64,000 nt of DNA from Balanoglossus misakiensis. Lineage: Eukaryota; Animalia; Hemichordata. Shown one piece after another: positions 7,851 to 32,916 of the stretch. The position numbers and the translations under genes are program-made. The notes below the pieces were generated by a model. The model was not told the origin of the DNA and did not search any database. It saw only the letters and a list, made by a program, of their open reading frames with translations. The DNA lies in assembly GCA_040954595.2 (NCBI GenBank), contig CM082588.2, positions 9,284,844 through 9,348,843 on the forward strand, read 5' to 3'. The stretch's first letter is position 1. The number at the start of each line of letters is the position of its first letter.

Positions 7851-10800
7851 GTCTGAGGTCGCGCTACGTGCTGCACCCACTGCTTTTAGTCTCTCCAGTT
7901 TTTGTCATTTTAAACGTGTTTTTCGCACCTTCGCCGTTATATTCCTGCTCGAGTTGGTTTATGAATGTCTGGACCCTACCCTACAACTTTTACTGACATC
8001 TCAACTTTCCTGCTTTTGGAACTACAGTGGTTTTTAGTTTACTTTCGCCGGTCTCAGTATTTCAATAGTCGCCATCTTTCCAAGTCATGCCTCCACCAGT
8101 GTATACTGCTGCCACCTTGATGAACATCGGTAAGAATGTCATGAATGACCGCCTATTGTCCAGGATAACTATCACCTTATGGAACAAGCTCAAAGATTTG
8201 AACTTATGTAAGACTCTGAATACCAAAAGAGGCTGCTTTGCAGGCAGACAAAAGAAACGATGCATCTCAACACGAATAACGCCGTATCACCTGTTCAACA
8301 AATGCAGAATAGCCAATCAGTGTTCCCGTGTTACTTATGGTAATCTCCTCAGGATTCCTACTACTGAATATTCAAATAGCCATGGCGAACTACTGCATAA
8401 CAATAATCAGTCTCAGACTGGTTTTGTTCCAGCGAAAGACAAATCACACAATATTCCAGTCGACTTATCTCCTGTCACGAAGCCATCCATCGATCAGCAT
8501 CCAAGAAATGTTCTACGCTGCGCCTTCATGAACTGTCGATCATTGTGCAATAAATCCACAGCTATCAACGATTTCCTGCAAGACTGTCATTTGGATGTTT
8601 TAATGCTTGCTGAAACGTGGCTTCGTGACGATGACAGTGATTCATCCCTCATCAATGAAACTCTGCCACCAGGCTATAGCATCATCAGTGTTCCGCGTAA
8701 AGGTCGTGGGGGGAGGCATCGCTACGATTTTTAAATCTTCACTGTTAGTGTCACAATGTCCACCTTCTACCTCAATCAAGTCGTTTGAATTAATGGAGGT
8801 ACGTATAAAAACTCCATCGTCGCATATCACACTAGCCACGGTTTACCGTCCTCCTCCGAATAAAACAAATGGTTTCACTGTTGATGACTTCGTTAATGAC
8901 TTCACTGACTTCTTGTCTTCTCATCTCACCAACAACGCCCCTCTTGTCATCACTGGCGACTTCAATTTTCATATTGACAATCTGAACTGCCCAAATGCCC
9001 GGAAATATCATGACATTCTGGAGTCGTTTTCTATGAGTCAATTGATAACTTCTCCTACACATCGTGCTGGCCATACTATTGACCATATCATTACTCGTGC
9101 TGATGACAGTACCATCGCTGATGTCCGAGTTGAACCGATCCATGCGATCTCTGATCATTTCCCAGTGTTATTCTCAATACGCAATTACTCTTACGTTAGA
9201 AACACGCGTAAATCTGTTACATCAAGGGATATGAAATCCTTTTCCGCTAATGGTTTCGCTGCTGAATTATTTGCATCCATCCGCCTTCAACCCGATGCTG
9301 ACGTATCTACTAATTGGGATTTGCTTAAAAACACTGTTAGCGATATATTTGATCGCCATGCACCAACCCGTGTGAGACTAGTGCCAAATAGGCGACCAGT
9401 GCCATGGATTAATCAGTCAATCATCGATGCCCGGTTGAAAAGAATGAAGGCAGAAAAAATGTGGAGAAAATCTAGGCTGGAAGTACATCGCCAGATTTAC
9501 AGGGCCTGTCGGACCGACGTCGTTCGCCTTGTGGATGCTGCTAAAAAGAACCATTATGTCGGCCTTGTTGACGAGTGCTCAGGTAACCAAAAACAATTAT
9601 TCAAGGTCGTAAAGGGACTGCTTGGTCACAATAACACATCCACTGTACTACCAAAACATGATGATTCTCTGGAATTAGCAAATCGTTTTGCAAAATTCTT
9701 CATTAATCGCGTAAAATCACTAACTATAAATATGGGCAATTCCATTCGACATCATTCACAACCACAAGCTGAATTGAAATCCGATTGTCGCCTTAATGCC
9801 TTTGAGCCTACAACAGCTGATGAAATTGACAAGGTTATTCGTGCATCGCCTTCATCTACTTGTCGCCTTGATCCGATTCCTACCAAGATCTTCAAACATT
9901 CTGACATTTTACAAGTTTTGTTACCACATATCACAGAAATCTTCAATAACTCTCTGCAGTATGGTGCTGTACCTCCTCATTTCAAGGAAGCCATCGTTAA
10001 ACCTCTACTTAAAAAGCCATCTCTTGATCATGAAGTTCTCAAAAATTTCCGTCCTGTATCCAACCTGCCGTTTTTGTCGAAGATCCTGGAACGTATTGTT
10101 GCCAAGAGACTGACTTCTCACATTGTCAACCATTCATTGGACGAGCCTTTGCAATCTGCTTACAAGCCAGGACACAGTACTGAGACTGCTCTCCTCAAAG
10201 TAACAAATGACATTTTGCTTGCTCTTGATGAAAAAAGAGATGTTTTCTTGGTATTACTCGATCTTTCCGCAGCATTTGACACTGTGAACCATACCATTTT
10301 ACTCAATCGCTTAAGAGACCGCTTCGGTCTCTCAGATACTGTTCTCATGTGGTTTAAGTCATACCTTTCCAATCGTAGTCAGTGTGTACTTGTAAATTCC
10401 ACCCAATCACCTTTCTATCCGCTCGACACTGGGGTACCACAGGGATCAGTTCTTGGTCCCATACTTTTCAATATGTACACGTCTCCATTAGGTGAATTAG
10501 TTCAAAGTCATGGTTGTCTTTATAGTTTTTATGCAGATGACTCTTCACTTTATATGTCTTTTAGTAAAGACAACGCAGCAAGAACTGTTTCAAATCTTGA
10601 ACTTTGTATTTCTGATGTTAGGTTTTGGATGTCTGAAAACTTCTTGTGCTTAAACGATGATAAGACTGAATTTGTTATTTTCTCTGGTATTTTGGGTGAT
10701 CTGTCTGCTAGAGGGATTTCAGAAATTCGTGTTGGCGATTCTCTGATTCCCGTCCATTGTCAGGCTAAGAGCCTTGGAGTGATCCTTGACTCTTGTCTGA

Positions 10801-11484
10801 CAATGAAGCCACATATTGGACAGATCTGCCGCTCTGCCACTTTTCATTTACGTCGCATTGCGCTTATCCGCAAATATTTATCTCATTCAGCTACAGAGCA
10901 ATTAGTTCATGCATTCATTACGTCTCGAATTGATTCATGTAATTCACTTTTATTTGGGCTCCCGAAGTATTCAATCAACCGTATCCAACGCGTTCAGAAT
11001 ATTGCTGCTAGAATTGTAACTCGTTCTAAAATCACCTGTCACATCACTCCAATTTTGTATCAGTTGCACTGGCTACCTGTTACAGAGCGTATTGTTTTTA
11101 AGATGTTAGTTCTCATTTTTAAATCCATTCATAAACTTGGTCCAATCTATCTTTCTAGCATGACTAATCTATATGTTCCATGTCGCAATTAAAGGTCAGC
11201 TGATCAGTTCAAACTCTGCCCTGTTCGATCACGCACCAAGAGTTATGGTGATCGTGCTTTTACTGTTGCTGCTCCAATTCTTTGGAATAATCTTCCACTC
11301 ACCATTCGCCAGGCACCAGACTTATCTGTTTTTAAATCAAATGTTAAAACTTTACTTTTTAAATCTGTTTTTTAGCCATTTGTTGTATTGTACTTTTGCT
11401 TTAAGCGTCATTGATCACATTTTTTTGTGGATACTGACGCTATACAAATAAATTATTATTATTATTATTATTATATTATTATAT
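7851..11484 (+). mobile_element. Non-LTR retrotransposon, L2/CR1 group, apparently single-ORF and near full length
   Basis: APE and RT coding region; 3' stem AGCGTCA...TGACGCT then ATACAAATAAA and a (TAT)n tail. TACAG is duplicated at 7846-7850 and 11485-11489, and the satellite resumes in register. Confidence 0.95.
8087..11375 (+). pseudogene. LINE ORF (AP endonuclease + reverse transcriptase) with one frameshift and one nonsense codon
   Basis: APE motifs NCRSL, AETWL, YRPP, GDFN, TIDHI, SDH. RT motifs FRPVSNL, LDLSAAFDTV, GVPQGSVLGP, YADD. Extra G in the G6 run at 8708-8713. TAA at 11190-11192, after which the frame continues RS...YGDRAFTVAAPILWNNLP...FKSNVKTLLF to TAG at 11375. Confidence 0.92.
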
Positions 11485-12020: not shown

Positions 12021-12317
12021 TCTTTACTATCAATCACGTGATCTGGCAATGTGTCACATGGCGCAGTCATTTCCAGATGACGGGCAAGCAATATTTCGGC
12101 ATCCAGTAAAAGTTTTTCCGAGTATGTTTTTACTTTAGAACCGCCAAACACATAACATGTATCGGGTATGTTGCCTCATCAGCCTCATTGCATTCCGTCT
12201 GCACAGTCTTTGTCTGCACCACGTAAGTCCACGTTGCTGAAGTTGCCCGTCATCTGGAAATCTGAACGCGAACGTAACTGCCACCTGAACGCGTCTGACG
12301 TCATTTGATAGCGAAGA
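12021..12317. mobile_element. 297-bp non-coding insertion with imperfect TIRs and an apparent AT duplication
   Basis: Left end TCTTTACTATCAATCACGTGA versus reverse complement of the right end TCTTCGCTATCAAATGACGTCA. The target CTT-AT-TCGC becomes CTTAT[element]ATTCGC. Confidence 0.8.
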
Positions 12318-12823
12318 ATTCGCTCGGGCCTGTGTGTTCTACGCATCACAACGGAATATGCAAATAAGGAGACGGTGACTGGAAGCAACCATGGATATTT
12401 TAGAACAAACAGTCGATCTACAGAGTCTACCGGAAAACTTTCTTATTCGCTCGGGCCTGTGTGTTCTACGCATCACAACGGAATATGCAAATAAGGAGAC
12501 GGTGACTGGAAGCATCCATGGATATTTTAGAACAAACAGTCGATCTACAGAGTCTACCGGAAAACTTTCTTATTCGCTCGGGCCTGTGTGTTCTACGCAT
12601 CACAACGGAATATGCAAAGAAGGAGACTGTGACTGGAAGCAACCATGGATATTTTAGAACAAACAGTCGATCTACAGAGTCTACCGGAAAACTTTCTTAT
12701 CCGCTCGGGCCTGTGTGTTCTACGCATCACAACGGAATATGCAAATAAGGAGACGGTGACTGGAAGCATCCATGGATATTTTAGAACAAACAGTCGATCT
12801 ACAGAGTCTACCGGAAAACTTTC
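12318..12823 (+). repeat. 127-bp satellite, segment 3
   Basis: Same monomer, 4 copies. Confidence 0.97.
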
Positions 12824-12990
12824 GTCTTGACTCCACTGCCATACAGTAGCCCTCTCTCACACATTGTTGCATAGTAACACTAATCACAGACGACCAAAAT
12901 ATGGTGACAGCCAGACCAAAGAGCAGTCGGCCTTGACATAGAAATAAAGAACGGGAGGTGGCACTGAGAAAATACAGCAACTGTATAAAT

Positions 12991-14031
12991 TTACAGACCT
13001 AAAGATTTGGAGACCGAAAGTCGTTTAGCTAAAGAATCTTTAATGTAACCATCCTTGGCACTGTCGGACTTCCACCGACCATGCCGTTTCCAGCATCTCT
13101 CATTAATTGCGCTGTTAGCTGCTGCTGAGGCACCGCTAGCACGAAGAGAATGAATGCCCACATTAACTTGCTGCCCAGTGACTTCCTTTAACCGCCTGAC
13201 CAGGCACTCCCTGGTGCGTGTATAGCTTAGCTGTTTGTTGACATAAACAAGCCCTAGTGTATCCTTGGATCTAAAAACAGGCTTGAACAGATAGTGAGAA
13301 CTGTGTGGAACACAATTGGCAGCATTTATATACCTAGAATACATGTTGTAAGGGCAAGTGACCGTATCAAGCTTTGCTAAAACCACAGTGTCGCCCTGCC
13401 TATATTGGTCAGTTTTACTTGAAGTGATGAAAAGACTTAAGTGATCTGAATTAACAGTGACATCACAACACCTTAATTTGCTGATTTCATCAAACCTCAA
13501 GAAAGCAGCAAAGCTGAAAAGAATCATAGTTAAATCTCTCAAAACTAGGAGGTCTTCACTTTCCGCATATTTCATGCAAAGTTCTTTCAAATCACCTGCT
13601 GACACTACGTCCTTTTTGGTGATTGGTTTCTTTGGTTGCCTCTTACTGGCTTCTAACAGACTAATTACAAAAGGGTGGACAGTGGGGTCTGGATGTGCAG
13701 ACAAGTTATGAGCCCATTTAATGGCATATACATAACTACTAATGGAATTATAAGTGCAACCTGTATCCAACAAATGTGTTAAAAATAATGCAACATGAAT
13801 TGGTGAAGCAGGCAATGCTTGACCCTTTTTGTCTTTAATAAATGAATTCCACCGTGAGAAATATCCAAGGTATTTGCGGCTTGTATTGTCACTCTTTGAT
13901 AGTGGAATTAGCGCAGACATCTTTTCTCCCAAGGCTCTCAATGATGAATCTTCAATGCCCTCTTCGTCCATAAAACTGTCAACGGCTCGCTGGAGATTCA
14001 AACCTGTAATGGGAAAAAAGAAAATTTCCAC
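12991..14031 (-). CDS. Tyrosine recombinase (integrase) of the DIRS-like element
   Basis: Catalytic set FLRFDE (R), SKTDQ (K), HSLRASG (HxxR), HGRW (H) and DGYI (Y). The ORF-track start is GTG; a likely splice acceptor lies at 14004. Confidence 0.95.
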   Translation of the reverse strand: MEIFFFPITGLNLQRAVDSFMDEEGIEDSSLRALGEKMSALIPLSKSDNTSRKYLGYFSRWNSFIKDKKGQALPASPIHVALFLTHLLDTGCTYNSISSYVYAIKWAHNLSAHPDPTVHPFVISLLEASKRQPKKPITKKDVVSAGDLKELCMKYAESEDLLVLRDLTMILFSFAAFLRFDEISKLRCCDVTVNSDHLSLFITSSKTDQYRQGDTVVLAKLDTVTCPYNMYSRYINAANCVPHSSHYLFKPVFRSKDTLGLVYVNKQLSYTRTRECLVRRLKEVTGQQVNVGIHSLRASGASAAANSAINERCWKRHGRWKSDSAKDGYIKDSLAKRLSVSKSLGL

Positions 14032-14046
14032 GTTCAGCTATCATGT

Positions 14047-16770
14047 TTATTCATGCCATACAAATCTTATGGCAAGCAAGTTAAAACCCAGTGGCTGTTC
14101 AGCAAATATCCCATTGTAGCCCTGGCCCCTAATGACTGAGCCTGTCCTAGGCAACGTACGAACTGAAATTACGAGAAGATCTTTCTTCAGTGCATGTAAA
14201 ATGGGCCAATACTGAGCAGATTTCCACTCAGGCAATATGATTGTACCAGTAGCCCTGTCTTTAAGCAGTTTCTTAAAAACTAGTAATGCAAGTCTGGGTG
14301 GTGGAACTATCCAGTTGTTGTCATTGCCCCAAAACTGTGCAAATGCATCAATACCATTGGTGCCCGCACACCACCATTTGGAATTAAAAGTTTTACACTG
14401 AGCATTGTAGCTACACGCAAATCTATCTACAGAGTGAGGCCCCCAAACTTTGTCTAGCTCTGCAAATATTTCAGGACTGATTCGCCAGTCATCAGCATCT
14501 TTGCATCTGCTTAACAGATCAGCTTTTCCATTAAGCTCCCTCGGGATCCACTCTGGGATAATCTGCATGCTATATTTCATGCATATGTCATGCACCTCTA
14601 GTGCGATATTTTGCAGGTCTACTTTGACACTGCCTACCTGTAGTATCCGCACCACATTTTGGTTATCAGTGAACCATTGTATGCATTTGCCCTCTAGGCA
14701 TTCTTTGTTGCTCTTTAAAATTCTGGAAACTGCTTCCAGTTCTCGCCATGTGGAGCTTTTAATTTTCTCCTCAGCAGACCATTGTCCAATGGTTTCAGAG
14801 CCGTTATGGTCTACAATAAACCCGCCATAGCCTGAGTCTGAGGCATCACTATAAACAACTACTGTTGTTGTGGAAACATTGACTAGGTCCGAGCCATTTA
14901 GGCTTTCCAGGTTATTGAGCCAGAATAACAATTCATCAAAACTATTCTTAGTTAGTACAACCTGGCTATTCCATGACGCTCGACTTTCAATACTGTGATA
15001 AATATATCGAGTGCGGAGCCTAGCTAATGGCCCTATAGCCCCTTGCATAGAAATTAATTGTCCTGCAATGCCAGCCAATTTCCTAACTGGAATACACACG
15101 GAACCGTGAGCGACTGATTGGACAACTCTGGAAACAACAGATAAAAGATTGATAACTCTTTGTTTAGTAACATATAGTTTCCCCATCTCCATGTCTAAAA
15201 TGGTTCCTAGCCATTCAATGATGGTAACTGGTTCCCAAAGGCATTTACTTTCTGAGCATAGGAAACCAAATTCTTCAAGATCACGTCTGACTATCTTACT
15301 CAATGCTGCTGCATCATATTTACCTCTACATCCACCGATCCCGTCATCATAGAAAATAAGGACCCGGTGGCCTTGGCTACGCCAGTGTGTTACAGGGACA
15401 CGCATCAACTTTGTAAATATATATGGGGCAGTAGCAATCCCAAAGGCAAGAACGTTAAAGACGAAAAACTTTTCTCTGCCATTGAAACAAAATGCAAAAC
15501 CCAGATAGGGTCTATGGTCATGAGCTATTTCTATATGGTGAAAAGCTGACTTAATGTCAAATTTAAACAAAAAATCACCTCTCTCAAACAAGGTACGTGC
15601 AACACTGGTATCTTCACAGCAGAATTTGAACTTATACAGACATGGATTGATATGTCTGCAGTCAAGCACTAACCGCTGTTTTCCATCCTTGTTAGTGGCT
15701 ACTGATAACGGGTTAACAACGAGTGCAGTGTCACTTGACACTTCGCTAATGGCTCCGATCGTGAGTAATTTGTCGATAGCTTCGCAAACAAAAAACCTGT
15801 TGTTTAATGCGGAGGTGTTATTAGGTAGCTTGACGCTATCTGGTAAATGATGGAACGGCAATTTATAGCCGTTTAACACGATATCGAGAACGTGCGAATT
15901 AGCACCTGCAGATTCCCATTTCTCAGAACACTTTTTGAGCCTCCCTACAGGGCTAACACTATCGGAAACGCAATCGAATAAAGTATCACTTAACTTTACG
16001 CCTCCTTGTTGGCTGTTAGCACTCTTGCTGGCAGCGCAATCCGGGTCTCCACGCCAATGGCCTGGTTTCCAACAAGCAAAGCATAGTCCTGGTTTGCTGG
16101 ATGCGATGGCATTCTGCTTTGGTGGTCGTCTGGTCGAGTTGCTTACGTCACCTGGCTGCTCGGCCTGCATGTACGGCGTATCCCAACGTGGGTATCGTTT
16201 GCGTTTTTTCGATTGCTGTTCTTTCACTTTCCTCTGCGCCCTGGTTTGGGCTTTATATATGCGTTTTTCATCGTCCGAATCGTCGGCAAGCTCGTTTGTT
16301 TCGTATTCTTCAACTACTTTCCATCCCAAGTCGTTGCTGTCCGCTAGTCGGATAAGCTTCTGTCTATGTTGTATGGTTTTCATACCCTCAGTGACTTGTT
16401 CTTGTATCTTCGATACGGTTTCCCCAATGACTCCGGTTTTGGACGTTTCACTGATAGGGTGGACCAATCTGTCGATTTCCTCAAGATTTTGATGGATGAG
16501 TTGGTTATGCTTGTACTGCTCCTCATTTCCCTTCTTCTTGAAAGTGGGACGGTCGTTGGACTTCAGCTGCTTAATCAGTGAAAGGTGACTTTCTGACAGA
16601 TCGGTTTGCGACGCAGACAGTTCGCGCTTGAGCGAATTTAGTCGTCCTGTCATCAACTTTTCCAGATCGGTCAGTAGGCTGGTATTTGCCGTCTTCAGAG
16701 TGTCTGCGACTTGTGTTTCAATCAAACTCTTCAGTTCTGTACTGCTTATGGCTTGCATGGGATTGGTCAT
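14047..16770 (-). CDS. DIRS-type Gag-Pol polyprotein: Gag with zinc knuckle, reverse transcriptase, RNase H, dam-like methyltransferase domain
   Basis: 907 aa uninterrupted. Knuckle CFACWKPGHWRGDPDC. RT RLVLDCR, FDIKSAFHHI, LAFGIATAP, FYDDG. RNase H SDAS, WRELEA, FTDNQ, NGKADLLSR. MT-like DRFA...IDAF...WIVPPP...PEWKSAQYWP. Confidence 0.95.
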   Translation of the reverse strand: MTNPMQAISSTELKSLIETQVADTLKTANTSLLTDLEKLMTGRLNSLKRELSASQTDLSESHLSLIKQLKSNDRPTFKKKGNEEQYKHNQLIHQNLEEIDRLVHPISETSKTGVIGETVSKIQEQVTEGMKTIQHRQKLIRLADSNDLGWKVVEEYETNELADDSDDEKRIYKAQTRAQRKVKEQQSKKRKRYPRWDTPYMQAEQPGDVSNSTRRPPKQNAIASSKPGLCFACWKPGHWRGDPDCAASKSANSQQGGVKLSDTLFDCVSDSVSPVGRLKKCSEKWESAGANSHVLDIVLNGYKLPFHHLPDSVKLPNNTSALNNRFFVCEAIDKLLTIGAISEVSSDTALVVNPLSVATNKDGKQRLVLDCRHINPCLYKFKFCCEDTSVARTLFERGDFLFKFDIKSAFHHIEIAHDHRPYLGFAFCFNGREKFFVFNVLAFGIATAPYIFTKLMRVPVTHWRSQGHRVLIFYDDGIGGCRGKYDAAALSKIVRRDLEEFGFLCSESKCLWEPVTIIEWLGTILDMEMGKLYVTKQRVINLLSVVSRVVQSVAHGSVCIPVRKLAGIAGQLISMQGAIGPLARLRTRYIYHSIESRASWNSQVVLTKNSFDELLFWLNNLESLNGSDLVNVSTTTVVVYSDASDSGYGGFIVDHNGSETIGQWSAEEKIKSSTWRELEAVSRILKSNKECLEGKCIQWFTDNQNVVRILQVGSVKVDLQNIALEVHDICMKYSMQIIPEWIPRELNGKADLLSRCKDADDWRISPEIFAELDKVWGPHSVDRFACSYNAQCKTFNSKWWCAGTNGIDAFAQFWGNDNNWIVPPPRLALLVFKKLLKDRATGTIILPEWKSAQYWPILHALKKDLLVISVRTLPRTGSVIRGQGYNGIFAEQPLGFNLLAIRFVWHE

Positions 16771-17068
16771 CGTGATGAAGACAAAGCGAAGAAAAAATGA
16801 CTCAAAACTGGCGGCAAAAAAAAAAAATTGATGAACAAGGACCGAACGTCTGTGCTGCTCAAAGATCTGCCTAGAAGTGGCTCAAAATTGCCTCAGCACG
16901 CATATGGCATTTTCCTCACTAAAACCCTCATTGGTCAATGCAACATTTTATATTTACTTATCCAATAAGAATACAACAAAACTATGAGCACGCACTAAAC
17001 ACTGCTTGTGTGCGTGACATCAAGACAAAGATTTCGATACTTTACTGTCGAAACGCGCGAAATCATAT

Positions 17069-17816
17069 TTATTCGCTCGGGCCTGTGTGTTCTACGCATC
17101 ACAACGGAATATGCAAATAAGGAGACAGTGACTGGAAGCAACCATGGATATTTTAGAACAAACAGTCGATCTACAGAGTCTACCGGAAAACTTTCTTATT
17201 CGCTCGGGCCTGTGTGTTCTACGCATCACAACGGAATATGCAAATAAGGAGACGGTGACTGGAAGCAACCATGGAAATTTTAGAACAAATAGTCGATCTA
17301 CAGAGTCTACCGGAAAACTTTTTTATTCACTCGGGCCTGTGTGTTCTACATATCACAACGGAATATGCAAATAAGGAGACGGTGACTGGAAGCAACCATG
17401 GATATTTTAGAACAAACAGTCGATCTACAGAGTCTACCGGAAAACTTTCTTATTCGCTCGGGCCTGTGTGTTCTACGCATCACAACGGAATATGCAAATA
17501 AGGAGACGGTGACTGGAAGCAACCATCGATATTTTAGAACAAACAGTCGATCTACAGAGTCTACCGGAAAACTTTCTTATTCGCTCGGGCCTGTGTTCTA
17601 CGCGTCACAACGGAATATGCAAATAAGGAGACGGTGACTGGAAGCAACCATGGATATTTTAGAACAAACAGTCGATCTACAGAGTCTACCGGAAAACTTT
17701 CTTATTCGCTCGGGCCTGTGTGTTCTACGCATCACAACGGAATATGCAAAGAAGGAGACTGTGACTGGAAGCAACCATGGATATTTTAGAACAAACAGTC
17801 GATCTACAGAGTCTAC
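17069..17816 (+). repeat. 127-bp satellite, segment 4
   Basis: Same monomer, about 6 copies. Confidence 0.97.
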
Positions 17817-17874
17817 AGGCCGAGTTACACGAGGCAACTCGGCAGGCAACTCGGTAGGCAACTCGACGCGCAAC
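17817..17874 (+). repeat. Left TIR of the Harbinger element
   Basis: AGGCCGAGTTACACGAGGCAACTCGGCAGGCAACTCGGTAGGCAACTCGACGCGCAAC, containing three AGGCAACTCG subrepeats. Confidence 0.95.
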
Positions 17875-18736
17875 CCGAGTTGCCTACCGAGTTGCCTCGT
17901 GTGTATGATCTAGTCGCCTCAATGGAACGCGTCTGGCGACGTCGCCTCGAAATCCGTCATGTCGGATTTTCGGGCGACGAGTTGCCTGACGCGCAAGCGG
18001 TTGCCCCGCGTTACCAGTTTTCCCCAATAACCTTTGACATCTGCACATGCGCAGAGGCATTTTCTGAACCAGGAAACAAATTGTCGTCCAGAGAAATAGT
18101 CGCGAATATTGGTAAGTATTTTTTTTATATCGCATATATTATCTACTATGTTTTGAGTATTTTATTATGAGCTCAAGTTTGATCAAATAAAACTAAAATG
18201 AGTGGTCTTTTCAGTGTTGTTATGACAAAAATTTATAAGTTCCGCAAAATGGTTACGAGGATTGACAAGTTGGTTGATCTCATGACCTGGCCAGCCAGCT
18301 GTGAGTAGGAAGATTTTTTTGTGTGGAAGCTTATTATTTCTGGATAACGCCAGCTAGAAATGTGTTCTTCGCTAGAAATTATAGTAGTATAGTGCATGAC
18401 TGGAATGAACATTGTCAGTTTGGGTCTGCAGTCTGTGCAGGTCAAGTGTCTAGTGGGCTAGTCTATGTACCGTAAACAGTGATGGTGGTGGTAATTGTCT
18501 CCATAGTTTTGCTCACATATTACAACGGACTGTTTCCCGTAGCCAGTAGGGCAATTGTTATGTTCTTTCCACAACTATAAATGACAGGTTTTCAGAAAAT
18601 TACTAGTTCTGTGCCATGATGTCGAATCCATAGATATAATGCAATAATATATAGCAGTTTGAAAGCTGATAGTGGTAGTTATGTAGTTGAATTTCATTTT
18701 AAGCGTGTTGTTTTTTGTTTAATAGCTTTTTACAAG

Positions 18737-18887
18737 ATGGATACTTGGTCAGATGATCAGGTTGATCAGCTTATCGAGAAGTATAGGGAATGTCGGCCCT
18801 TATGGGATGTGTCTCATGCAGACTATAAGGACAGAGTTATTAGGGAAAAACTAATAACAGAGATATCTGTCAGTCTTGACAAGTCAG
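18737..18887 (+). CDS. Harbinger MADF/Myb-SANT DNA-binding protein, coding exon 1
   Basis: MDTWSDDQVDQLIEKYRECRPLWDVSHADYKDR... fits the MADF pattern LI..Y...P.LWD.....YKD. Donor G|gtgaat, phase 1. Confidence 0.88.
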
Positions 18888-19300
18888 GTGAATAAGTTTA
18901 AAGGTTTATTTCCTAGAGATAACAATGAACAAATAGTATAATTATAGTAGGTAACAATGAATAAATATTATATAATCATAGTGGCTGTATCTAATATTTC
19001 CAGTATATCTTAATGTACAAATAATTCAAATCATCAGCTTATTTCATTAATATTATTTAAGTTTCTTATACCTTGACAGGTTTACATCCCATTTGAAAAG
19101 TAAAAATCAGCCACAGTTCATCAAAGATGATTCATTTAATAAAATTATTGTATCAGTTTTCTTCTGGTAAAATTTGGAAAGGAATTGTGTCATAGTTAAA
19201 CTACTGCTACTATGGCCAATGACTTGATGGCTAATTTAAACAAATTTATCCAAACTTGTGTTGTAACACTTATATATTTGTACAATGTTTCTCATTTAAG

Positions 19301-19482
19301 TACCAAGTGTGTACAAGAAAATAAAGAATTTAAGAACAATGTACGCCAGGCATCGCCGTGGCCCAAAAAGCGGAAGTAGTGCAGGCCAATTAGAGAAGCG
19401 CCAGTGGATATTAAATAAGCTGAGCTTTTGTGATGAATACATAATCCCTAAAAGTACAAGGTCTACCTTTGACGCACCTCAG
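19301..19482 (+). CDS. Harbinger MADF protein, coding exon 2
   Basis: Acceptor ctcatttaag|. VPSVYKKIKNLRTMYARHRRGPKSGS...W....LSF completes the MADF domain. Donor CAG|gtaatg, phase 0. Confidence 0.88.
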
Positions 19483-19699
19483 GTAATGTTGATTGTGACA
19501 GAATAGAAACATAGCATAGCATAGGTTTTAGGATATTGTTAGGTATTGATAGGAGGATTAGTATTTCTAACACCTTCAAATAACAATATTTTAACATTTG
19601 ATTGTAAGCAGCGTACTTTACGTGGCTCTAAATTTTATCTTAGGTTGTGGAAAAGAAAGAATTCTCTTATTGTTGCGGGTATCAACCCATTTGTTATGC

Positions 19700-19813
19700 A
19701 TTACAGTGTATTTTTGTTCTTTTTTAGCCACAATACCATATGGTGAAATTTTTGTGGAAATCGTACCTATTGATATTAAAATTTTTATTTTTATATAATT
19801 CTTTATTTAATTG

Positions 19814-19851
<38 letters not shown>

Positions 19852-21419
19852 GTTAAGGGGTTTAAAGAATTATATAAACAATCTATCAATTTAATAAGCA
19901 CGGGTGGATTTCATGTACAATCATTCGTGATACTTCAGATTCATAAAGACAACATTTTTCAAAGTGGCCTATGTATCTAAAATTGCAGACGACGTTTCAA
20001 CGCTTTCGGTTGGAGATTTTCTACCTAATATTCACAAAAAGACCTCGGGTATTGTTAAACACTATTTAAAACCTTGTTACCCGGTGAGTCTGGTGGCGTG
20101 TGTACGACAGATCTGAGGTACAAAACTTCGCTCGAAACCCAACACGAGTTGGAGAACGAGTTTATTTACGTACAACATTGTAGCAATTTTTCGTATGTTT
20201 GCGCGTGCTCTGGAATCACGCGATGTCAACTGAGTGTGAACGAGCTGTTTCGCGTCGTGTCGTCTGCCCAGTTTTCGTGGCTAAAACGACAGGAATAATA
20301 CCCCAGTTGGCTTTAGAATTGCACATATCATGAGATTTGAGCGCCATAGAAACCGCAGATATCGTGGAACAGGAAGGTTAGTGTTTAAATCATTGATTTT
20401 AATCGAAGAATTGTCCTCTGAGTTATGCTACGTTTGTGTCGGTGTCAAACGGACGCAATGTTTACACGGCAGCAAAATAAAATCGGAGAAATGAAGAAAT
20501 GTTATCACGATACTTTGGATTTCGTGTTATTATTTCTCGGGAATTTTATTGTTTTCTCAGACGAGGTGACAGGACAGACACACGAGGCATCTCGCGGTTT
20601 CGTTTTCAATTTTATGTTTTGACTGCATTTGCGTGTCAGCTGACAGGTCTTCGCATTCATCAGAAGGTATCGTGCGTCACTGAGATTTGATTCTTCCTAA
20701 ACGAAAATTATTTCATAACCATACCAAATAAAACATTCCCAGAAATTTAGAAGTTTGCAGACTTTTCTGCTAGTTGTCTATTTAGTGTTGAAGTCACGCT
20801 GAACTGCCAAATTTAACACAGACTCGCTGTCAATACTCAAACAGTGTACTTCTACGAGTGTGTCCTGTAACTGCCTTCCTTCAATAACCCATGTCATACA
20901 ACAACAAATAGACGGTAAACGTTTATGCAATACCAATGAATTTATGTTTTAAAACTGGTCGACAGTCTGGAAATGCATGAACAATCGATTGATTGGATTC
21001 CTTAACGATACTATTGTATCTTGTATTTTTTTGTAGTTACACTGTGGAAATCGGCAGGCTGCATTGCCAGTTGTTCTGCACATGCGCAGTTCCTCTGTCT
21101 TGAAAGAAAAGTCAAATTTCACCAACTTATAAATGTGCATTCAGAAAATAAACCCCAAATGTTTTCTTTGTGAACAAAAATACTGCCAGTGTGATTTTGT
21201 GTTCAAATCCAACCAATTATTATGTAAATTGACTTGTGATACCCTCTCTTAGCACAAAAAGCATAATTTCAGCCCCAAAATGGTTGCCATAGAAACATGT
21301 GATCACTAAACGGATATCATTTTTGTTCTTATTGAGCCAAGATACCCCTATGGTGAAATTTTTATGGAAATCGGACCTATTATTATTACAATTATTATTT
21401 TTATATAATTCTTTATTGA

Positions 21420-21489
<70 letters not shown>

Positions 21490-24400
21490 GTTAAGGGGTT
21501 TAAAGAATTATATAAACAATCTATCAATTTAATAAGCACGGGTGGATTTCCTGTACAATCATTCGTGATACTTCAGATTCATAAAGACAACATTTTTCAA
21601 AGTGGCCTATGTATCTAAAATTGCAGACGACGTTTCAACGCTTTCGGTTGGAGATTTTCTACCTAATATTCACAAAAAGACCTCGGGTATTGTTAAACAC
21701 TATTTAAAACCTTGTTACCCGGTGAGTCTGGTGGCGTGTGTACGACAGATCTGAGGTACAAAACTTCGCTCGAAACCCAACACGAGTTGGAGACCGAGTT
21801 TATTTACGTACAACATTGTAGCAATTTTTCGTATGTTTGCGCGCGCTCTGAAATCACGCGATGTCAACTGAGTGTGAACGAGCTGTTTCGCGTTGTGTCG
21901 TCTGCCCAGTTTTCGTGGCTAAAACGACAGGAATAATACCCCAGTTGGCTTAAGAATTGCACATATCGTGAGATTTGAGCGCCATAGAAACTGCAGATAT
22001 CGTGGAACAGGAAGGTTAGTGTTTAAATCATTGATTTTAATCGAAGAATTGTCCTCTGAGTTATGCTACGTTTGTGTCGGTGTCAAACGGACGCAATGTT
22101 TACACGGCAGCAAAATAAAATCGGAGAAATGAAGAAATGTTATCACGATACTTTGGATTTCGTGTTATTATTTCTCGGGAATTTTATTGTTTTCTCAGAC
22201 GAGGTGACAGGACAGACACACGAGGCATCTCGCGGTTTCGTTTTCAATTTTATGTTTTGACTGCATTTGCGTGTCAGCTGACAGGTCTTCGCATTCATCA
22301 GAAGGTATCGTGCGTCACTGAGATTTGATTCTTCCTAAACGAAAATTATTTCATAACCATACCAAATAAAACATTCCCAGAAATTTAGAAGTTTGCAGAC
22401 TTTTCTGCTAGTTGTCTATTTAGTGTTGAAGTCACGCTGAACTGCCAAATTTAACAGACTCGCCGTCAACACTCAAAAAGTGTGTACTTCTACGGGTGTG
22501 TCCTGTAACTGCCTTCCTTCGATAACCATACAACAACAGATAGACGGTAAACGTTTATGCAATACCAATGGATTTATGTTTTAAAACTGGTCGACAGTCA
22601 GGAAATATGCGTGAACAATCGATTGATTGGATTCCCCAGCGATACTATTGTATCTTGTGATTTTTTGTAGTTACACTGTGGAAATCGGCAGGCTGCATTG
22701 CCAGTTGTTCTGCACATGTGCAGTTCCTCTGTCTTGAAAGAAAAGTCAAATTTCACCAACTTATAAATGTGCATTCGGAAAATAAACCACAAATGTTTCC
22801 TTTGTGACCAAAAATACTGCCAGTGCGATTTTGTGTTCAAATCCAACCTATTATTATTTAAAGTGACTTGTGATACCCTCTCTTAGCACAAAAAGCATAA
22901 TTTCAGCCCAAAAATGGTTGCCATAGAAACATGGGATCACTAAACGGATATCATTTTTGTTCTTTTCGAGCCAAGATACCCCTATGGTGAATTTTTTGTG
23001 GAAATCGGACCTATTATTATTAAAATTATTATTTTTATATAATTCTTTATTTAATTATTATTATTACCAGTTAAGGGGTTTAAAGAATTATATAAACAAT
23101 CTATCAATTTAATAAGCACGGGTGGATTTCCTGTACAATCATTCGTGATACTTCAGATTCATAAAGACAACATTTTTCAAAGTGGCCTATGTATCTAAAA
23201 TTGCAGACGACGTTTCAACGCTTTCGGTTGGAGATTTTCTACCTAATATTCACAAAAAGACCTCGGGTATTGTTAAACACTATTTAAAACCTTGTTACCC
23301 AGTGAGTCTGGTGGCGTGTGTACGACAGATCTGAGGTACAAAACTTCGCTCGAAACCCAACACGAGTTGGAGACCGAGTTTATTTACGTACAACATTGTA
23401 GCAATTTTTCGTATGTTTGCGCGCGCTCTGAAATCACGCGATGTCAACTGAGTGTGAACGAGCTGTTTCGCGTCGTGTCGTCTGCCCAGTTTTCGTGGCT
23501 AAAACGACAGGAATAATACCCCAGTTGGCTTTAGAATTGCACATATCATGAGATTTGAGCGCCATAGAAACCGCAGATATCGTGGAACAGGAAGGTTAGT
23601 GTTAAAATTATTGTTTTTAATCAAAGTATTGACCTCTGAGTTATGCTACGTTTGTGTCGGTGTCAAACGGACGCAATGTTTACAATGTACAAGGCAGCCA
23701 AATAGAATCAGAGAAATGAAGAAATGTTATCACGATACTTTGGATTTCGTGTTATTATTTCTCGGGAATTTTATTGTTTTCTCAGACGAGGTGACAGGAC
23801 AGACACACGAGGCATCTCGCGGTTCCGTTTTCAATGTTGAATTTTATGTTTTGGCTGTATTTGCGTGTCAGCTGACAGGTCTTCGCATTCATCAGAAGCT
23901 ATCGTGCGTCGCTGAGATTTGATTCTTCATAGACGAAAATTATTTCATAACCATACCAAATAAAACATTTCCAGAAATTTAGAAGTTTGCAGACTTTTCT
24001 GCTAGTTGTCTATTTAGTGTTGAAGTCACGCTGAACTGCCAAATTTAACACAGACTCGCTGTCAATACTCAAACAGTGTACTTCTACGAGTGTGTCCTGT
24101 AACTGCCTTCCTTCAATAACCCATGTCATACAACAACAAATAGACGGTAAACGTTTATGCAATACCAATGAATTTATGTTTTAAAACTGGTCGACAGTCT
24201 GGAAATGCATGAACAATCGATTGATTGGATTCCTTAACGATACTATTGTATCTTGTATTTTTTTGTAGTTACACTGTGGAAATCGGCAGGCAGCATTGCC
24301 AGTTTTTCTGCACATGCGCAGTTCCTCTGTCTTGAAAGAAAAGTCAAATTTCACCAACTTATTATTGTGCATTCGGAAAATAAACCCCAAATATTTTCTT

Positions 24401-24651
24401 TGTGAACAAAAATACTGCCAGTGTGATTTTGTGTTCAAATCCAACCTATTATTATGTAAATTGACTTGTGATACCCTCTCTTAGCACAAAAAGCATAATT
24501 TCAGCCCCAAAATGGTTGCCATAGAAACAGGTGATCACTAAACGGATATCATTTTTGTTCTTATTGAGCCAAGAAACCCCTATGGTGAAATTTTTGTGGA
24601 AATCGGTCCTATTATTATTAAAATTATTATTTTTATATAATTCTTTATTTA

Positions 24652-24697
<46 letters not shown>

Positions 24698-26266
24698 GTT
24701 AAGGGGTTTAAAGAATTATATAAACAATCTATCAATTTAATAAGCACGGGTGGATTTCCTGTACAATCATTCGTGATACTTCAGATTCATAAAGACAACA
24801 TTTTTCAAAGTGGCCTATGTATCTAAAATTGCAGACGACGTTTCAACGCTTTCGGTTGGAGATTTTCTACCTAATATTCACAAAAAGACCTCGGGTATTG
24901 TTAAACACTATTTAAAACCTTGTTACCCGGTGAGTCTGGTGGCGTGTGTACGACAGATCTGAGGTACAAAACTTCGCTCGAAACCCAACACGAGTTGGAG
25001 ACCGAGTTTATTTACGTACAACATTGTAGCAATTTTTCGTATGTTTGCGCGCGCTCTGGAATCACGCGATGTCAACTGAGTGTGAACGAGCTGTTTCGCG
25101 TCGTGTCGTCTGCCCAGTTTTCGTGGCTAAAACGACAGGAATAATACCCCAGTTGGCTTTAGAATTGCACATATCATGAGATTTGAGCGCCATAGAAACC
25201 GCAGATATCGTGGAACAGGAAGGTTAGTGTTAAAATTATTGTTTTTAATCAAAGTATTGACCTCTGAGTTATGCTACGTTTGTGTCGGTGTCAAACGGAC
25301 GCAATTTGTTTACACGGCAGCCAAATAGAATCGGAGAAATGAAGAAATGTTAGCACGATACTTTGGATTTCGTGTTATTATTTCTCGGGAATTTTATTGT
25401 TTTCTCAGACGAGGTGACAGGAAAGACACACGGGCGGTTCCGTTTTCAATGTTGAATTTTATGTTTTGGCTATATTTGCGTGTCAGCTGACAGGTCTTCG
25501 CATTCATCAGAAGCTATCGTGCGTCGCTGAGATTTGATTCTTCATAGACGAAAATTATTTCATAACCATACCAAATAAAACATTTCCAGAAATTTAGAAG
25601 TTTGCAGACTTTTCTGCTAGTTGTCTATTTAGTGTTGAAGTCACGCTGAACTGCCAAATTTAACACAGACTCGCTGTCAATACTCAAACAGTGTACTTCT
25701 ACGAGTGTGTCATGTAACTGCCTTCCTTCAATAACCCATGTCATACAACAACAAATAGACGGTAAACGTTTATGCAATACCAATGAATTTATGTTTTAAA
25801 ACTGGTCGACAGTCTGGAAATGCATGAACAATCGATTGATTGGATTCCTTAACGATACTATTGTATCTTGTATTTTTTTGTAGTTACACTGTGGAAATCG
25901 GCAGGCAGCATTGCCAGTTTTTCTGCACATGCGCAGTTCCTCTGTCTTGAAAGAAAAGTCAAATTTCACCAACTTATTATTGTGCATTCGGAAAATAAAC
26001 CCCAAATGTTTTCTTTGTGAACAAAAATACTGCCAGTTTGATTTTGTGTTCAAATCCAACCAATTATTATGTAAATTGACTTGTGATACCCTCTCTTAGC
26101 ACAAAAAGCATAATTTCAGCCCCAAAATGGTTGCCATAGAAACATGTGATCACTAAACGGATATCATTTTTGTTCTTATTGAGCCAAGATACCCCTATGG
26201 TGAAATTTTTGTGGAAATCGGACCTATTATTATTAAAATTATTATTTTTATATAATTCTTTATTTA

Positions 26267-26298
<32 letters not shown>

Positions 26299-26337
26299 AT
26301 TCTTTATTTAATTATTATTATTATTATTATTATTATT
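19700..26337 (+). repeat. Tandem array of four 1.58-1.64-kb units separated by (TAT)n tracts, inside MADF intron 2
   Basis: Equivalent positions at 20074, 21712, 23292 and 24920. (TAT)n of variable length at about 19820, 21425, 23055, 24655 and 26270. Confidence 0.95.
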
Positions 26338-26519
26338 GCATAACACAGCAAGCATAATACAGCATATCCATAAAATATATACATATACATCAGAATAAAT
26401 AATATCATGCAATGACCACAAATAAATACAGACTTGAATTCAATTATCAACAATACCACTGTTGATCATACAAAAGGGTTGTATTGTAAAGGCAAATCTC
26501 TAGTTTTAAATCTCTAAAT

Positions 26520-27335
26520 TTAAATTTTGCTAAGTTGCCAATCAACAGACCCTTCATTGCTGAAATAATCACACAGTCTATTTCTTACATTATTTGCTCC
26601 CTCTGTTCCCCTTGTGGGTGGATGTCTTTCTAGACAAACCATACCAGTGTTTTCATGTCTCCAAGCACCATCAAGGATGTCATGTGTCACGGGGTCAACA
26701 ATGTCTGTTGATCCTGGAGGTGTATAAACTGTGTTTGCAGTAGAATGGGACACCAGATAATTATGCAAAGCACAGCAGGCTAAAACAACACTTTGTACAG
26801 TGTCTGGGGGAAGATTGATTGCTGTCTGAAATATTCTAAAACGACTGGCCAGTATACCAAAAGCATTCTCAACAACTCTTCTGGCCCTGGAGAGTCTGTA
26901 ATTATACAATCTCTTCTCCAAGGAAAGTTGGCGGTATGGGTATGGTTTCATGAGGTACTCTTTTATGGGAAAAGCATCATCAGCCACTACCATGTATGGC
27001 AAGCATTCAGTTGTACCAGGTAGTGGTGCGGGCTTTGGTACTTTTAGGGCATTTGTTTCCAAAGCAGATGACAAAGAACAAGCTCTATACACACCCCCAT
27101 CACTAATCCGACCCTGACATCCAACATCTACATATGTAAATTTATAATGGGCATCAACAAGGCCCATTAGCACAATACTGAAAGTATGTTTGTAGTTGTA
27201 GTAAATACTCCCACTGTTTGCTGGCTTTCTGATTACAACATGCTTGCCATCTAGGGCACCAATGCAATTTGGAAAGTTCCATCTGTCTTCAAAGTCCTTT
27301 GCAATTTTGGCCCAATCTTCTGTTGTACTTGGAGT
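26520..27335 (-). CDS. Harbinger transposase, last exon (DDE_Tnp_4 / HARBI1-like catalytic domain; 421 aa in total)
   Basis: Acceptor tgtttcag|. WNFPNCIGALDGKH, YNYKHTFSIVLM, GRISDGG, VADDAFP, YNYRLSRARRVVENAFGILASRF, ACCALHN. Confidence 0.95.
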   Translation of the reverse strand, partial: TPSTTEDWAKIAKDFEDRWNFPNCIGALDGKHVVIRKPANSGSIYYNYKHTFSIVLMGLVDAHYKFTYVDVGCQGRISDGGVYRACSLSSALETNALKVPKPAPLPGTTECLPYMVVADDAFPIKEYLMKPYPYRQLSLEKRLYNYRLSRARRVVENAFGILASRFRIFQTAINLPPDTVQSVVLACCALHNYLVSHSTANTVYTPPGSTDIVDPVTHDILDGAWRHENTGMVCLERHPPTRGTEGANNVRNRLCDYFSNEGSVDWQLSKI

Positions 27336-27518
27336 CTGAAACAAACATGGGATGCATAATAAAGTCATGTTACATTACAGTCCTCTGACAGCATATTCAG
27401 TTCCTTGGTTTTTTAAATAACATTTTTTAAAGTGATGGTAAACTAACTGAATTAGCTGATTTTGAATGAAAATGTCCCTGAACCAGAAAATGTTACAAAT
27501 GTATTTTGTTTTTTTCAG

Positions 27519-27965
27519 TGTTCCCAAGATTCGGAGGATTCTATTTCAGAGGACCATGACGAAGTTGTTCAACATGTTGAACCTAGACCATCTCGCAAAA
27601 GGAAACAAGATGAAACAAGCTTTATGTTATCTAGCATGGCTGCGGCATGCAATAAAATAGCAAACAAAAACGAAACAACACGTTCTTCACCTTCGGATGA
27701 AGCTTTCGGCAACTATGTTGCTGGAGAGCTCGCAGCTTGTGAAAACGTAAAAGCCAAAGCTGTGGCAAAATTGAAGATATCAGAAATAATTACTAAAATG
27801 TGTTTGGGAGAATTTAATTTGCCAAGATTCGAACCATTTATATATCAAACACCACCTGCCACACAAACATACCCTTCTGGCCCAACCCCATACACCAGCA
27901 CCCCAGCCCACCATTCTCCTGAATGCTCATACACTCCCACCCATCATCCTTTGGTAGATTTTTAG
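27519..27965 (+). CDS. Harbinger MADF protein, last exon (about 259 aa in total)
   Basis: Acceptor ttttttcag|, phase 0. Contains RKRK and a BESS-like C-terminal motif DEAFGNYVAGEL......KAVAKLKISEII typical of MADF partners. Confidence 0.8.
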   Translation, partial: CSQDSEDSISEDHDEVVQHVEPRPSRKRKQDETSFMLSSMAAACNKIANKNETTRSSPSDEAFGNYVAGELAACENVKAKAVAKLKISEIITKMCLGEFNLPRFEPFIYQTPPATQTYPSGPTPYTSTPAHHSPECSYTPTHHPLVDF

Positions 27966-28218
27966 GTCCCATTGGTATAGGCATATATACCATGGGACCT
28001 TATGGGATCGATTGCATCTGTATGTATGTATGTATGTATGTATGTATGTATGTATGTATGTATGTATGTCCGTCCACATCAAAAACTTGAAAACCGCTGT
28101 ATGTATCACCTTGTTATTTGGTGTGCAGATGCAGGCTTGACTGTAGATGGGAGTTTGTTGTCATTGCCAAAATGAAAAATGTGAATTTGGTCAAAACTCA
28201 GTACCTCAAGAACTACTA

Positions 28219-30988: not shown

Positions 30989-31828
30989 TATTATTATTAT
31001 TACTGGTCAGATTGCTTTGCAAATTGGTGTGTATTTATTTTATTGAGTTGTTTTAATTAGGCAGGAAGCCCCTTCCTGAGGCAGTGAATTATATACAAAT
31101 TCCTGAAAGATTACATAACTGGCTTGTTCTATTTAGTGTATGTACAGTACATATGCCATTGGCAGCTAATGGGTCAGTCAGTGCTTGCCCATTGATCTCT
31201 CGCTAAGAGTGTGTGTGTGTGTGTGTGTGTGTGTCTGTCTGTATATGGCCATGTACTCTGGTGTAGACTTTTTCTTGTATAATCCCTCAATGGGACCACC
31301 GTGTCCTTGACGCGATTTTTAAAAACATGTTAAAGAATTCTATAATGATTTTCTCTTTAAGCAATATTTTAGTTGTTTGCGCAGGTTTCTGCCCAGAGTG
31401 TAAAAAGTTAAATTTTATTTCCAGTGTTTTTTAAACAAAGTTGTAGTGTAATGCTGAGAGGATATTTTAGTACATAAGATATATTTATTAAATTTGGGAC
31501 TGAAATTTTCGTGTGTTTACAATACTGTTGGTTGCTATAGCTTGTTGACCCCCCATTTTTATTCCACAGATCAAATATTTAGAAGTCATAGTATCATCAG
31601 TATTAATGAATACATAAACAACAAGGAAGGTAAGAGTTAGATTTTAAGAAAAAAACATTTCAATAATCACATCCATTGTAACATGCAACTTATTGTTGTT
31701 GTTGTCTCCATATTTGGAGTGTGTTAGCATTCTATGTAATATTTTATTGATATGTATACTAAGATTTTCTGTTTTAAAGTCCAAATGACTTAAAAAATGA
31801 AATAAACATGGAAAAAATTTATAGTTAC

Positions 31829-31944
31829 CTTGAGATAGCTGTCTTTAAGAGCCTCGAAGATTGCTTCACATGTTTCTGGGATTATTTTCCGAATTGTTGA
31901 AACAGACATCCGAAATCCATACTGTAGACATTGGTATGATTGTC
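31829..31944 (-). CDS. Harbinger transposase, coding exon 3
   Basis: Acceptor tctccatag|. GQSYQCLQYGFRMSVSTIRKIIPETCEAIFEALKDSYLK. Donor AAG|gtaact, phase 0. Confidence 0.9.
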
Positions 31945-32027
31945 CTATGGAGAAACAATACAAAACAATTAAATGCATTTGTATACAAACATCTACAGAT
32001 CATATATATATATATATATATATATAT

Positions 32028-32204
32028 CTGTCTTGAAAATTGAAGAAAGTACTCTGATTTTTAACATGGTTGAACACCATGCAATGCACCCTGTGAGTGC
32101 TTCAGTGCATATACAGACTTATAATTGATACAGGATGGCATGCCAATTATAGTAAATGTCTATTTTACAGAAAATATAGGGTACTTTCTCCATTTTCATT
32201 ACAG
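32028..32204. mobile_element. Small TIR element inserted in a (TA)n tract of transposase intron 2
   Basis: CTGTCTTGAAAATTGAAGAAAGTACTCT versus reverse complement of the right end CTGTAATGAAAATGGAGAAAGTACCCT; (TA)n on both sides. Confidence 0.65.
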
Positions 32205-32310
32205 ATATATATATATATATATATATATATAGTAGAGGACTCTACTATCAAGCTCTGGATTTACACCATCGAGCACTCTGCCAGCAGAACTTGCAACGAA
32301 CTCCCAAATC

Positions 32311-32341
<31 letters not shown>

Positions 32342-32416
32342 TATATATATATATATACACGCGCACACACACACACTCACATGTGTAATGATAAAAGCTG
32401 TAGCACATTTGTATAC

Positions 32417-32658
32417 CTGTTGCCAAAAACCGGAGGGTTACAGCCAACCGTTCCCCTGGAGATATTGATGACCTCATGACTGTGTCCTGTTTCTGGATTC
32501 TGTCTTCTATTAGGGTTAGCAAATCTGAAAACCCTGTGTAATTGACCCTCAAAAAATTCTTGTAGCATCTTGGGTCCTCTAATCTTAACTCTTGAATGAG
32601 AGTGTGATACCATCCCAGTTGTGGTCTCCGTAACAGCCAAGGCCTACACCAAAGTTTT
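32417..32658 (-). CDS. Harbinger transposase, coding exon 2
   Basis: Acceptor tttacag|. RKLWCRPWLLRR..G.YHTLIQEL...YKNFLR...FSDLL...KQDTVMRSSISPGERLAVTLRFLATG is the canonical Harbinger N-terminus. Phase 1 donor. Confidence 0.92.
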
Positions 32659-32824
32659 CTGTAAATATGTGAATTGTACATGTCAACAGTTCCATAAATA
32701 AAATTTTAAAAATCTTGGTAATTCAGGAAGTTATATGTTGAGACACATGCATACAAAAACTGGATTTACAAAGCTATTAAGTAAAATATCACATTCATTT
32801 TACTCATAATTATAAATTATTCAC

Positions 32825-32916
32825 CTTTTCCTTTTCTTTTTCTTATTTCTCTCTTGGAATAAGTAGGCAGTTGCAGTTGCCAGAATTACCAGAAAATCTT
32901 CCTGTATGTCATTCAT
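32825..32916 (-). CDS. Harbinger transposase, coding exon 1
   Basis: MNDIQEDFLVILATATAYLFQERNKKKKRK(R). Donor AG|gtgaat, phase 2, matching the next exon. Confidence 0.75.

Follow-up and report, generated by a model that had tools for sequence, protein, structure and literature searches.

The 64,000-nucleotide stretch of Balanoglossus misakiensis DNA analysed here (contig CM082588.2 of assembly GCA_040954595.2, positions 9,284,844 to 9,348,843, hereafter the window) carries on its minus strand a tyrosine-recombinase (YR) retrotransposon of 4245 bp. With a probability of roughly one half, we read it as a reduced copy of a PAT-like element in which two adjacent 7-bp motifs near the 5' end belong to a stem-loop spanning the junction of the element's two ends, a stem-loop that likely folds in single-stranded sense DNA as the site for the recombinase. 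The parts of this reading differ in strength. It is very probable that the motif makes up the 3' half of a stem-loop, common to the clade, that forms across the joint between the 3' repeat, B, and the 5' repeat, A (B|A), and also probable, if a little less so, that the window copy is a reduction of a PAT-like element to the form A-ORFs-B (ORF, open reading frame). That folded sense DNA is the recombinase substrate we hold to be an even proposition.

12824..17068, minus strand: PAT-like tyrosine-recombinase retrotransposon, probable reduced form A-ORFs-B, without target duplication

In the window sequence the insert splits one unit of a 127-bp satellite, which reads ...ACTTTC up to 12823 and continues with TTATTCG from 17069 on, so the edges lie at 12824 and 17068 and nothing is duplicated, exactly as a previous analysis of the letters alone (the sequence-only reading) had placed them. 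Three DNA runs of the organism (X1, X2 and X3, all from one sample) carry the element, and a 112-base contig of X1 begins at exactly 12824, as expected if copies branch there into differing flanks. In the sense of the element the target is ATAA|GAA, and the element begins ATA and finishes GAC.

12318..12823, no strand: 127-bp satellite, flank on the element's 3' end
17069..17816, no strand: 127-bp satellite, flank on the element's 5' end, ending AATAA in element sense

The four 7-mers TCAAGAC (at 17020), GATTTCG (17030), GTCTTGA (12824) and CGAAATC (17058) occur once each in the element, and the first two form the internal complement to the joined ends that the sequence-only reading had described as a splint; the chance of finding both adjacent and in order within the first 300 nt is about 7e-6, a post hoc estimate. 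In element sense the start consists of a core of 4 nt, arm X, a loop, arm X', a second core (core') of 3 nt and arm Y', and the end of the element is arm Y. X and X' pair as a local hairpin, and Y pairs with Y'.

12824..12830, minus strand: arm Y (TCAAGAC in element sense), final bases of the element, putative recombinase-bound arm, from the motif, the B ends and the alignment
17065..17068, minus strand: core (ATAT), first 4 nt of the element, forming one side of the bubble of mismatches where insertion takes place
17058..17064, minus strand: arm X (GATTTCG in sense), 5' strand of the inner stem, from the motif and the alignment
17045..17050, minus strand: hairpin tip C-GACA-G, a loop of the GNNA mini-hairpin type, following the C-GN(N)A-G pattern counted below
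17020..17036, minus strand: the splint, 3' half of the junction stem-loop, with X' at 17030-17036, core' (TTT) at 17027-17029 and Y' at 17020-17026

Conservation of this structure was assessed in 81 related loci, the best 80 of 112 metagenome loci plus one close locus (L081) from genome contigs, where seven further matches were weak; a search of viral contigs gave no relative. L081 itself is a contig binned in a bacterial metagenome-assembled genome and carries an animal-type retrotransposon, likely host DNA in a bacterial bin. A scan for the double stem behind the YR, made in the 59 loci with enough tail (and moved 330 nt downstream for L011 and L037), reached a score of at least 13 in 21/59 loci, compared with 4/59 for the best of 8 shuffles; an earlier scan with 6-bp arms had returned many chance matches, the satellite included. 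The alignment comprises 17 junctions, the best-alignable group, and the 5' end of the window element, 18 rows in total, and leaves out the AT-rich families L011, L014, L018, L021 and L037. Across these rows 87.5% of 312 cells pair, against 38-45% in slid controls, and 17020-17036 co-varies with the termini, as the splint proposal would have it: 13 of the 18 pairs change on both sides, a number matched by 0/500 shuffles, a test that overstates the significance because the rows are related and were chosen after the hairpin scan. RNAalifold, unaided, recovered 13 of these pairs in the same two helices.

A search of 82 sources (377,267 bases) with a model built from the alignment yielded 38 matches at E<=1. 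The 30 at E<=1e-3 lie without exception on the sense strand, and the scores of five antisense matches were about one third as high. Twelve of the matches at E<=1e-3 fall outside the training set, and the matches beyond that set include 5' ends (L013, L019, L029, L063) and sites upstream of the YR (L032, L062, L059, L060). In two of these loci (L032:1166-1229 and L062:2631-2694) the hairpin lies between the methyltransferase (MT) and the YR, the internal-repeat placement described for nematode-form Pat1. Self-comparison revealed a B1...B2 pair behind the YR in 9/81 loci, with B of 55-92 bp and a spacing of 391-773 bp, most of the other loci being too short to judge; one locus, L011, has all four repeats A1, B1, A2 and B2. 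The B repeat, whose limits come from the self-comparison and not from the hairpin, ends with the end of Y in 4/9 of these loci and one base later in another 4/9 (L068 is unclear). Because B ends at Y or one base past it, and because the model finds its matches in relatives, the splint belongs to ordinary split-repeat elements, and the crossover lies at the edge of its bubble.

How the arms vary bears on what the structure does. Inner-stem positions mostly swap C-G, G-C, T-A and A-T yet stay complementary, and in the arms some positions never change (A at columns 20 and 22 in 17/17 rows, T:A at 32/61 in 18/18). The usual binding sites of tyrosine recombinases are inverted arms in duplex DNA, and together with the invariant positions this would suit a site that never folds, with Y-core-X as the crossover site and X'-core'-Y' as an inverted accessory site for the recombinase or a host factor. 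We regard such an arrangement as improbable, because most inner-stem positions change base and remain complementary, because a strand-specific C-GN(N)A-G is retained in the spacer, with N free and in two lengths, and because core and target have no sequence in common, whereas two-strand exchange normally requires overlap homology. In favour of folded sense DNA as the substrate, the cut is placed inside one arm of the inverted repeat, off its centre.

The strand is indicated by the tip, where C-GN(N)A-G occurs in 16/18 rows on the sense strand and in 0/18 on the antisense strand. The chemistry of tyrosine recombinases, with a 3'-phosphotyrosine on the side of the arm, would likewise indicate the sense strand. 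The tip loop has three bases in ten rows and four in six, and no four-base loop is of the GNRA type. PMC13037366 describes a high stability of GNA and GNNA mini-hairpins in DNA and a much lower one of the RNA counterpart that was tested; the motifs described there have G-C stems, whereas the stems of the junction hairpin are weaker. The flanks add a one-sided bias, since 9 of the left flanks (n=10) carry A at -4 (binomial P 0.0002) and 8 carry it at -2 (P 0.002), in a post hoc test over 8 positions without correction and with several flanks from the same family, and these positions match the invariant A positions of arm Y. The right flanks (n=15) have no shared pattern and no homology to core or core', and the predicted pairing of the right flank with core' was not seen in the flanks of the relatives. 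In 7/15 cases, about as many as expected by chance, flank and core begin with the same base.

The stem-loop could instead serve reverse transcription, in that the RNA, or linear plus-strand DNA, pairs through its B end with Y' and thereby primes synthesis or holds the ends for ligation, after which the recombinase would use an ordinary duplex circle. Pairing of the two separate ends, as the sequence-only reading proposed, is predicted, RNA fold energies favour the sense strand in 17/18 rows, and the internal complementary region (ICR) of DIRS-1, to which such a role has been ascribed, is needed after first-strand synthesis, the primer being unknown (excerpts of PMC7192593). This role is nonetheless unlikely in our judgement: Y and Y' comprise only 5-9 bp, the B1|A2 joint of complete elements already templates the rebuilding of the ends, the tip loops are not of the RNA-type GNRA, and both the core-target non-homology and the one-sided flank bias are left unexplained.

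We therefore favour the folded sense strand as the substrate, on the grounds of the off-centre cut, the paired but variable stem, the strand-specific tip and the one-sided flank bias. In the mechanism that we propose, a complete A1-ORFs-B1-A2-spacer-B2 element would be transcribed from a start within A1, and reverse transcription would give a circle. The sense strand would then fold at the B|A junction, Y against Y' and X against X', around a bubble of 4/3 mismatched bases, and the recombinase would cut between Y and the bubble and swap that single strand with a target resembling Y on its left (A at -4 and -2). Replication or repair would resolve the product, so that neither homology nor duplication would be needed. 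B|A may be taken as a split long terminal repeat (LTR), a complete element corresponding to a two-LTR circle opened in one LTR and the window copy to a B1 x B2 recombination product or an inserted one-LTR circle. As a general statement, we would only tentatively propose that PAT-like elements integrate by single-strand exchange from a folded sense-DNA junction with a GNA/GNNA cap, in animals and after the manner of attC, without homology and reading a single target flank, and that one-junction A-ORFs-B circles are also substrates, perhaps the moving form in the L023-L027 family.

Several observations weigh against this reading, besides the overstated shuffle test and the uncorrected flank test. 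Covarying inverted repeats also suit paired duplex-DNA binding sites or RNA structure, and the tip helix by itself is not significant (27/500 shuffles reach it). The mismatches, 7 G.T versus 3 A.C, do not separate the strands, and DNA fold energies are almost equal for sense and antisense. Folding and cleavage at the junction are predicted from sequence alone. Finally, passages of PMC7192593 describe the single-stranded cDNA of DIRS-1 as antisense, so a source of single-stranded sense DNA has to be assumed. On the side of the window family, no single contig covers A2-spacer-B2, the comparison of the whole element with the contigs gave no end junction among the joints (it is seen only as a loose end), and a tandem or a circle could equally produce a B|A junction.

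The case for a reduced copy begins with what the window lacks. There is no further copy of A or B within it, so this copy, being without the split direct repeats A1-ORFs-B1-A2-B2, is not itself a complete PAT element, and direct comparison of leader and tail found no long direct or inverted repeat between them, in line with the sequence-only reading. That reading had gone further and suggested a minimal architecture, in a family without terminal repeats, with the splint in their place, and here the organism's own contigs point the other way.

16821..17068, minus strand: A block, 5' repeat with the hairpin and promoter-like motifs, about 250-275 bp, possibly reaching about 16795
12824..12935, minus strand: B block, 3' repeat, 112 bp, from the 112-base X1 contig and the loose end at 12935

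Contigs diverge from the window at 16821 into non-gag sequence, which gives A a second downstream context, and a loose end at 12935 in X1 gives B a second, non-YR upstream context. When the A block alone was compared with the contigs, the loose end behind 17068 proved to be the start of B, over 26 letters in X1 and 112 in X2. The window family thus has a B|A junction, an A leading elsewhere and a B coming from elsewhere, the pieces of B1-A2-spacer-B2. Eight of the listed contig ends match the window for 4-5 bases past 17068 and then diverge, so other insertions have ATAA or AATAA as their left flank. Summed contig depth in X1 is about 380 at the ends versus 103 over the ORFs, a weak measure that gives no copy number but suggests many gene-less copies bearing A or B. 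In X3, a run without ORF coverage, a 756-base contig on 16821-17072 consists of flank, A and then non-gag sequence, and is likely a gene-less A-spacer derivative at higher copy number.

The relatives agree with this picture, although their loci are short-read metagenome contigs in which misjoining is possible. The junction motif is also present in relatives that keep B1-A2-spacer-B2, which speaks against a family lacking terminal repeats. L019, an A-ORFs-B locus, has about 95% identity to L004 and L039, both with B1-A2-spacer-B2; L012 and L045 are A-ORFs-B, and L014, of the same family, shows B|A. Whole A-ORFs-B elements are found in five loci (L012, L045, L027, L019 and, by an inferred end, L013), so the reduced form recurs. 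The B|A loose ends, the second contexts of A and B, the B1...B2 loci and the comparison of L019 with L004 and L039 together carry the view that the window copy is reduced, the simpler alternative that the sequence-only reading had itself offered as a collapsed PAT-like copy. It had taken a B-A2-B2 tail in most sister copies as the mark of such a collapse; relatives of that kind exist, which agrees in kind though not in number. Its idea of the motif as an end splint or recombinase site is supported insofar as the motif can pair with the two termini and covariation links it to them, and the recombination-site role is our own best reading too, but a role of the motif as a substitute for terminal repeats is unsupported. 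The reduced copy would have arisen either by B1 x B2 recombination after insertion or by insertion of a one-junction circle; both fit.

One may ask whether A-ORFs-B is itself active, the splint allowing a one-junction element to circularise and move without A2 and B2. The five whole A-ORFs-B loci would agree with this, as would the young L023-L027 family, 99.6-99.8% identical, in which the 4 loci that extend past B (L024-L027) enter flank at 3 sites and none enters A, and as would the intact window copy, with only 4 of 2562 bases differing from an X1 contig. We nevertheless consider it very unlikely, given the B|A junction and second contexts in the window's own family, the complete members of the L019 family, the B|A of L014 in the family of L012 and L045, and the possibility that short-read contigs are misjoined across B. 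Furthermore, the promoter-like motifs are internal, so that the RNA would be without the hairpin. Without A2, the window copy likely makes proteins and likely is unable to rebuild its own 5' end.

The coding part of the element bears out the sequence-only reading, which had called both ORFs open with their catalytic residues present and had placed the CCAAT/ATTGG and TATAAAA motifs inside the element.

14047..16770, minus strand: open Gag-reverse transcriptase (RT)-RNase H (RH)-methyltransferase-like ORF, 907 aa from ATG, Gag with a Cx2Cx4H zinc knuckle
12991..14037, minus strand: tyrosine recombinase ORF, open frame, first ATG at 13971 giving 326 aa
14004..14026, minus strand: pyrimidine tract and TTACAG|G, predicted splice acceptor before the YR frame, with YAG across loci
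16930..16966, minus strand: CCAAT, TATAAAA and ATTGG motifs inside A, candidate internal promoter, from the sequence

RT/RH and YR lie on the same strand with the YR downstream. In the 907-aa ORF, Pfam detects RVT_1 (E=1.6e-15), an RNase H below the Pfam cut-off (E=0.004) and, at the expected place behind RH, a Dam-like match (E=0.0026; 17.9 bits, below the 28.1 cut-off), which, weak as it is, speaks against Ngaro, a group without an MT domain. By comparison among these sequences, the Cx2Cx4H knuckle is present in the window ORF and 6 relatives. The YR frame matches Phage_integrase below the Pfam cut-off (E=1.7e-4), and its residues R159, K186, H274, R277, H297, W300 and Y309 are invariant in 32/32 aligned sequences; its named relatives are from marine invertebrates, e.g. 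Saccostrea, Mytilus and Glandiceps, with identity of up to 57%. A YAG resembling a 3' splice site precedes the YR frame in 19/19 loci (the window and 18 related ones), as counted by eye, a strict acceptor pattern having caught 3, and from these sequences the YR is likely made from a spliced RNA. At 15988-15996 (minus strand), behind the Gag zinc knuckle, AAG-(A/T)TAAGT is kept at the nucleotide level in 6/7 loci (window, L001, L003, L013, L019 and L029); it equals the splice-donor consensus except for the first intron base and is out of phase with the YR acceptor.

The satellite around the element has received other inserts as well. Between 6519 and 34202 of the window, four unrelated inserts lie within about 25 bases of one part of the 127-bp unit, possibly an insertion hot spot. 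At 17817-33603 the satellite contains a 15.8-kb insert, likely a large unit of PIF/Harbinger type, which has terminal inverted repeats of about 55 bp, a TAC duplication and, at 26520-27374, a DDE_Tnp_4 frame (E=1.8e-33). An endonuclease-RT non-LTR element occupies 7855-11484, with ORFs at 8069-8734 and 8604-11192 and an (ATT)n tail, and an insert of about 295 bp at 12023-12317 resembles a miniature inverted-repeat transposable element, its inverted ends short and imperfect.

The integration route of tyrosine-recombinase retrotransposons is largely untested, and the excerpts of PMC7192593 note that the specificity of the DIRS-1 recombinase is without experimental study. The locus and its relatives supply a candidate substrate of 60 bases in which strand, position of the cut, bubble and target bias are all defined. 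If the mechanism holds, recombination through a folded single strand, as demonstrated in bacterial integrons, would also operate in retroelements of animals. The DIRS ICR and the PAT repeats would then be two versions of one principle, the rebuilding of a duplex around the junction of the ends, and the enzyme would be a compact eukaryotic integrase with little target requirement.

The conserved junction hairpin is real, and a new minimal architecture for the window family is unsupported. Titles, opening parts of abstracts and passages of the papers found by literature search contain no description of a PAT junction hairpin or of folded-strand integration, within a scope that excludes supplements, Repbase and two key papers that may describe the hairpin (Goodwin and Poulter 2004; Poulter and Butler 2015); the main text of PMC4157794 does not contain the word hairpin. 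By domain order, zinc knuckle and repeat placement, the predicted element fits the echinoderm-form Pat1-like elements (SpPat1 type) of the PAT group, order DIRS, as portrayed in excerpts of PMC4157794, PMC6681497 and PMC13465315; it differs from that form (PMC4157794) in that the window copy is without A2-spacer-B2. The Ngaro elements, which lack an MT domain, already offer reduced split-direct-repeat forms in the Cafeteria solo AB repeats, ascribed in passages of PMC8547959 to repeat recombination, but those gene-less forms lose the ORFs, whereas the window copy keeps them and loses A2-spacer-B2.

A DIRS1-like identity was rejected, since the element has no inverted terminal repeats, no 85-130-bp ICR and no shared end trinucleotide, features given in excerpts of PMC3266345. 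It does resemble DIRS1 in having an internal complement to both ends, adjacent and in order (passages of PMC3266345 and PMC7192593), and DIRS1-type elements in integrating by a YR without target duplication. In contrast to the ICR near the 3' end of DIRS1, its complement measures just 17 bp, lies at the start of A and is mismatched at the core, and with ATA at its start and GAC at its end no trinucleotide is common to both ends and the target.

The closest parallel in principle is the integron attC site. The PAT junction is an imperfect inverted repeat with unpaired central bases and a structure conserved over sequence, as in attC-like sites, and the predicted course, one folded strand with unpaired parts, single-strand exchange and replicative resolution, is that described in PMC3458562 and PMC2727003. 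The attC sites belong to a bacterial cassette system, are served by another enzyme clade and have been demonstrated experimentally, whereas here the same principle is proposed for a eukaryotic retroelement.

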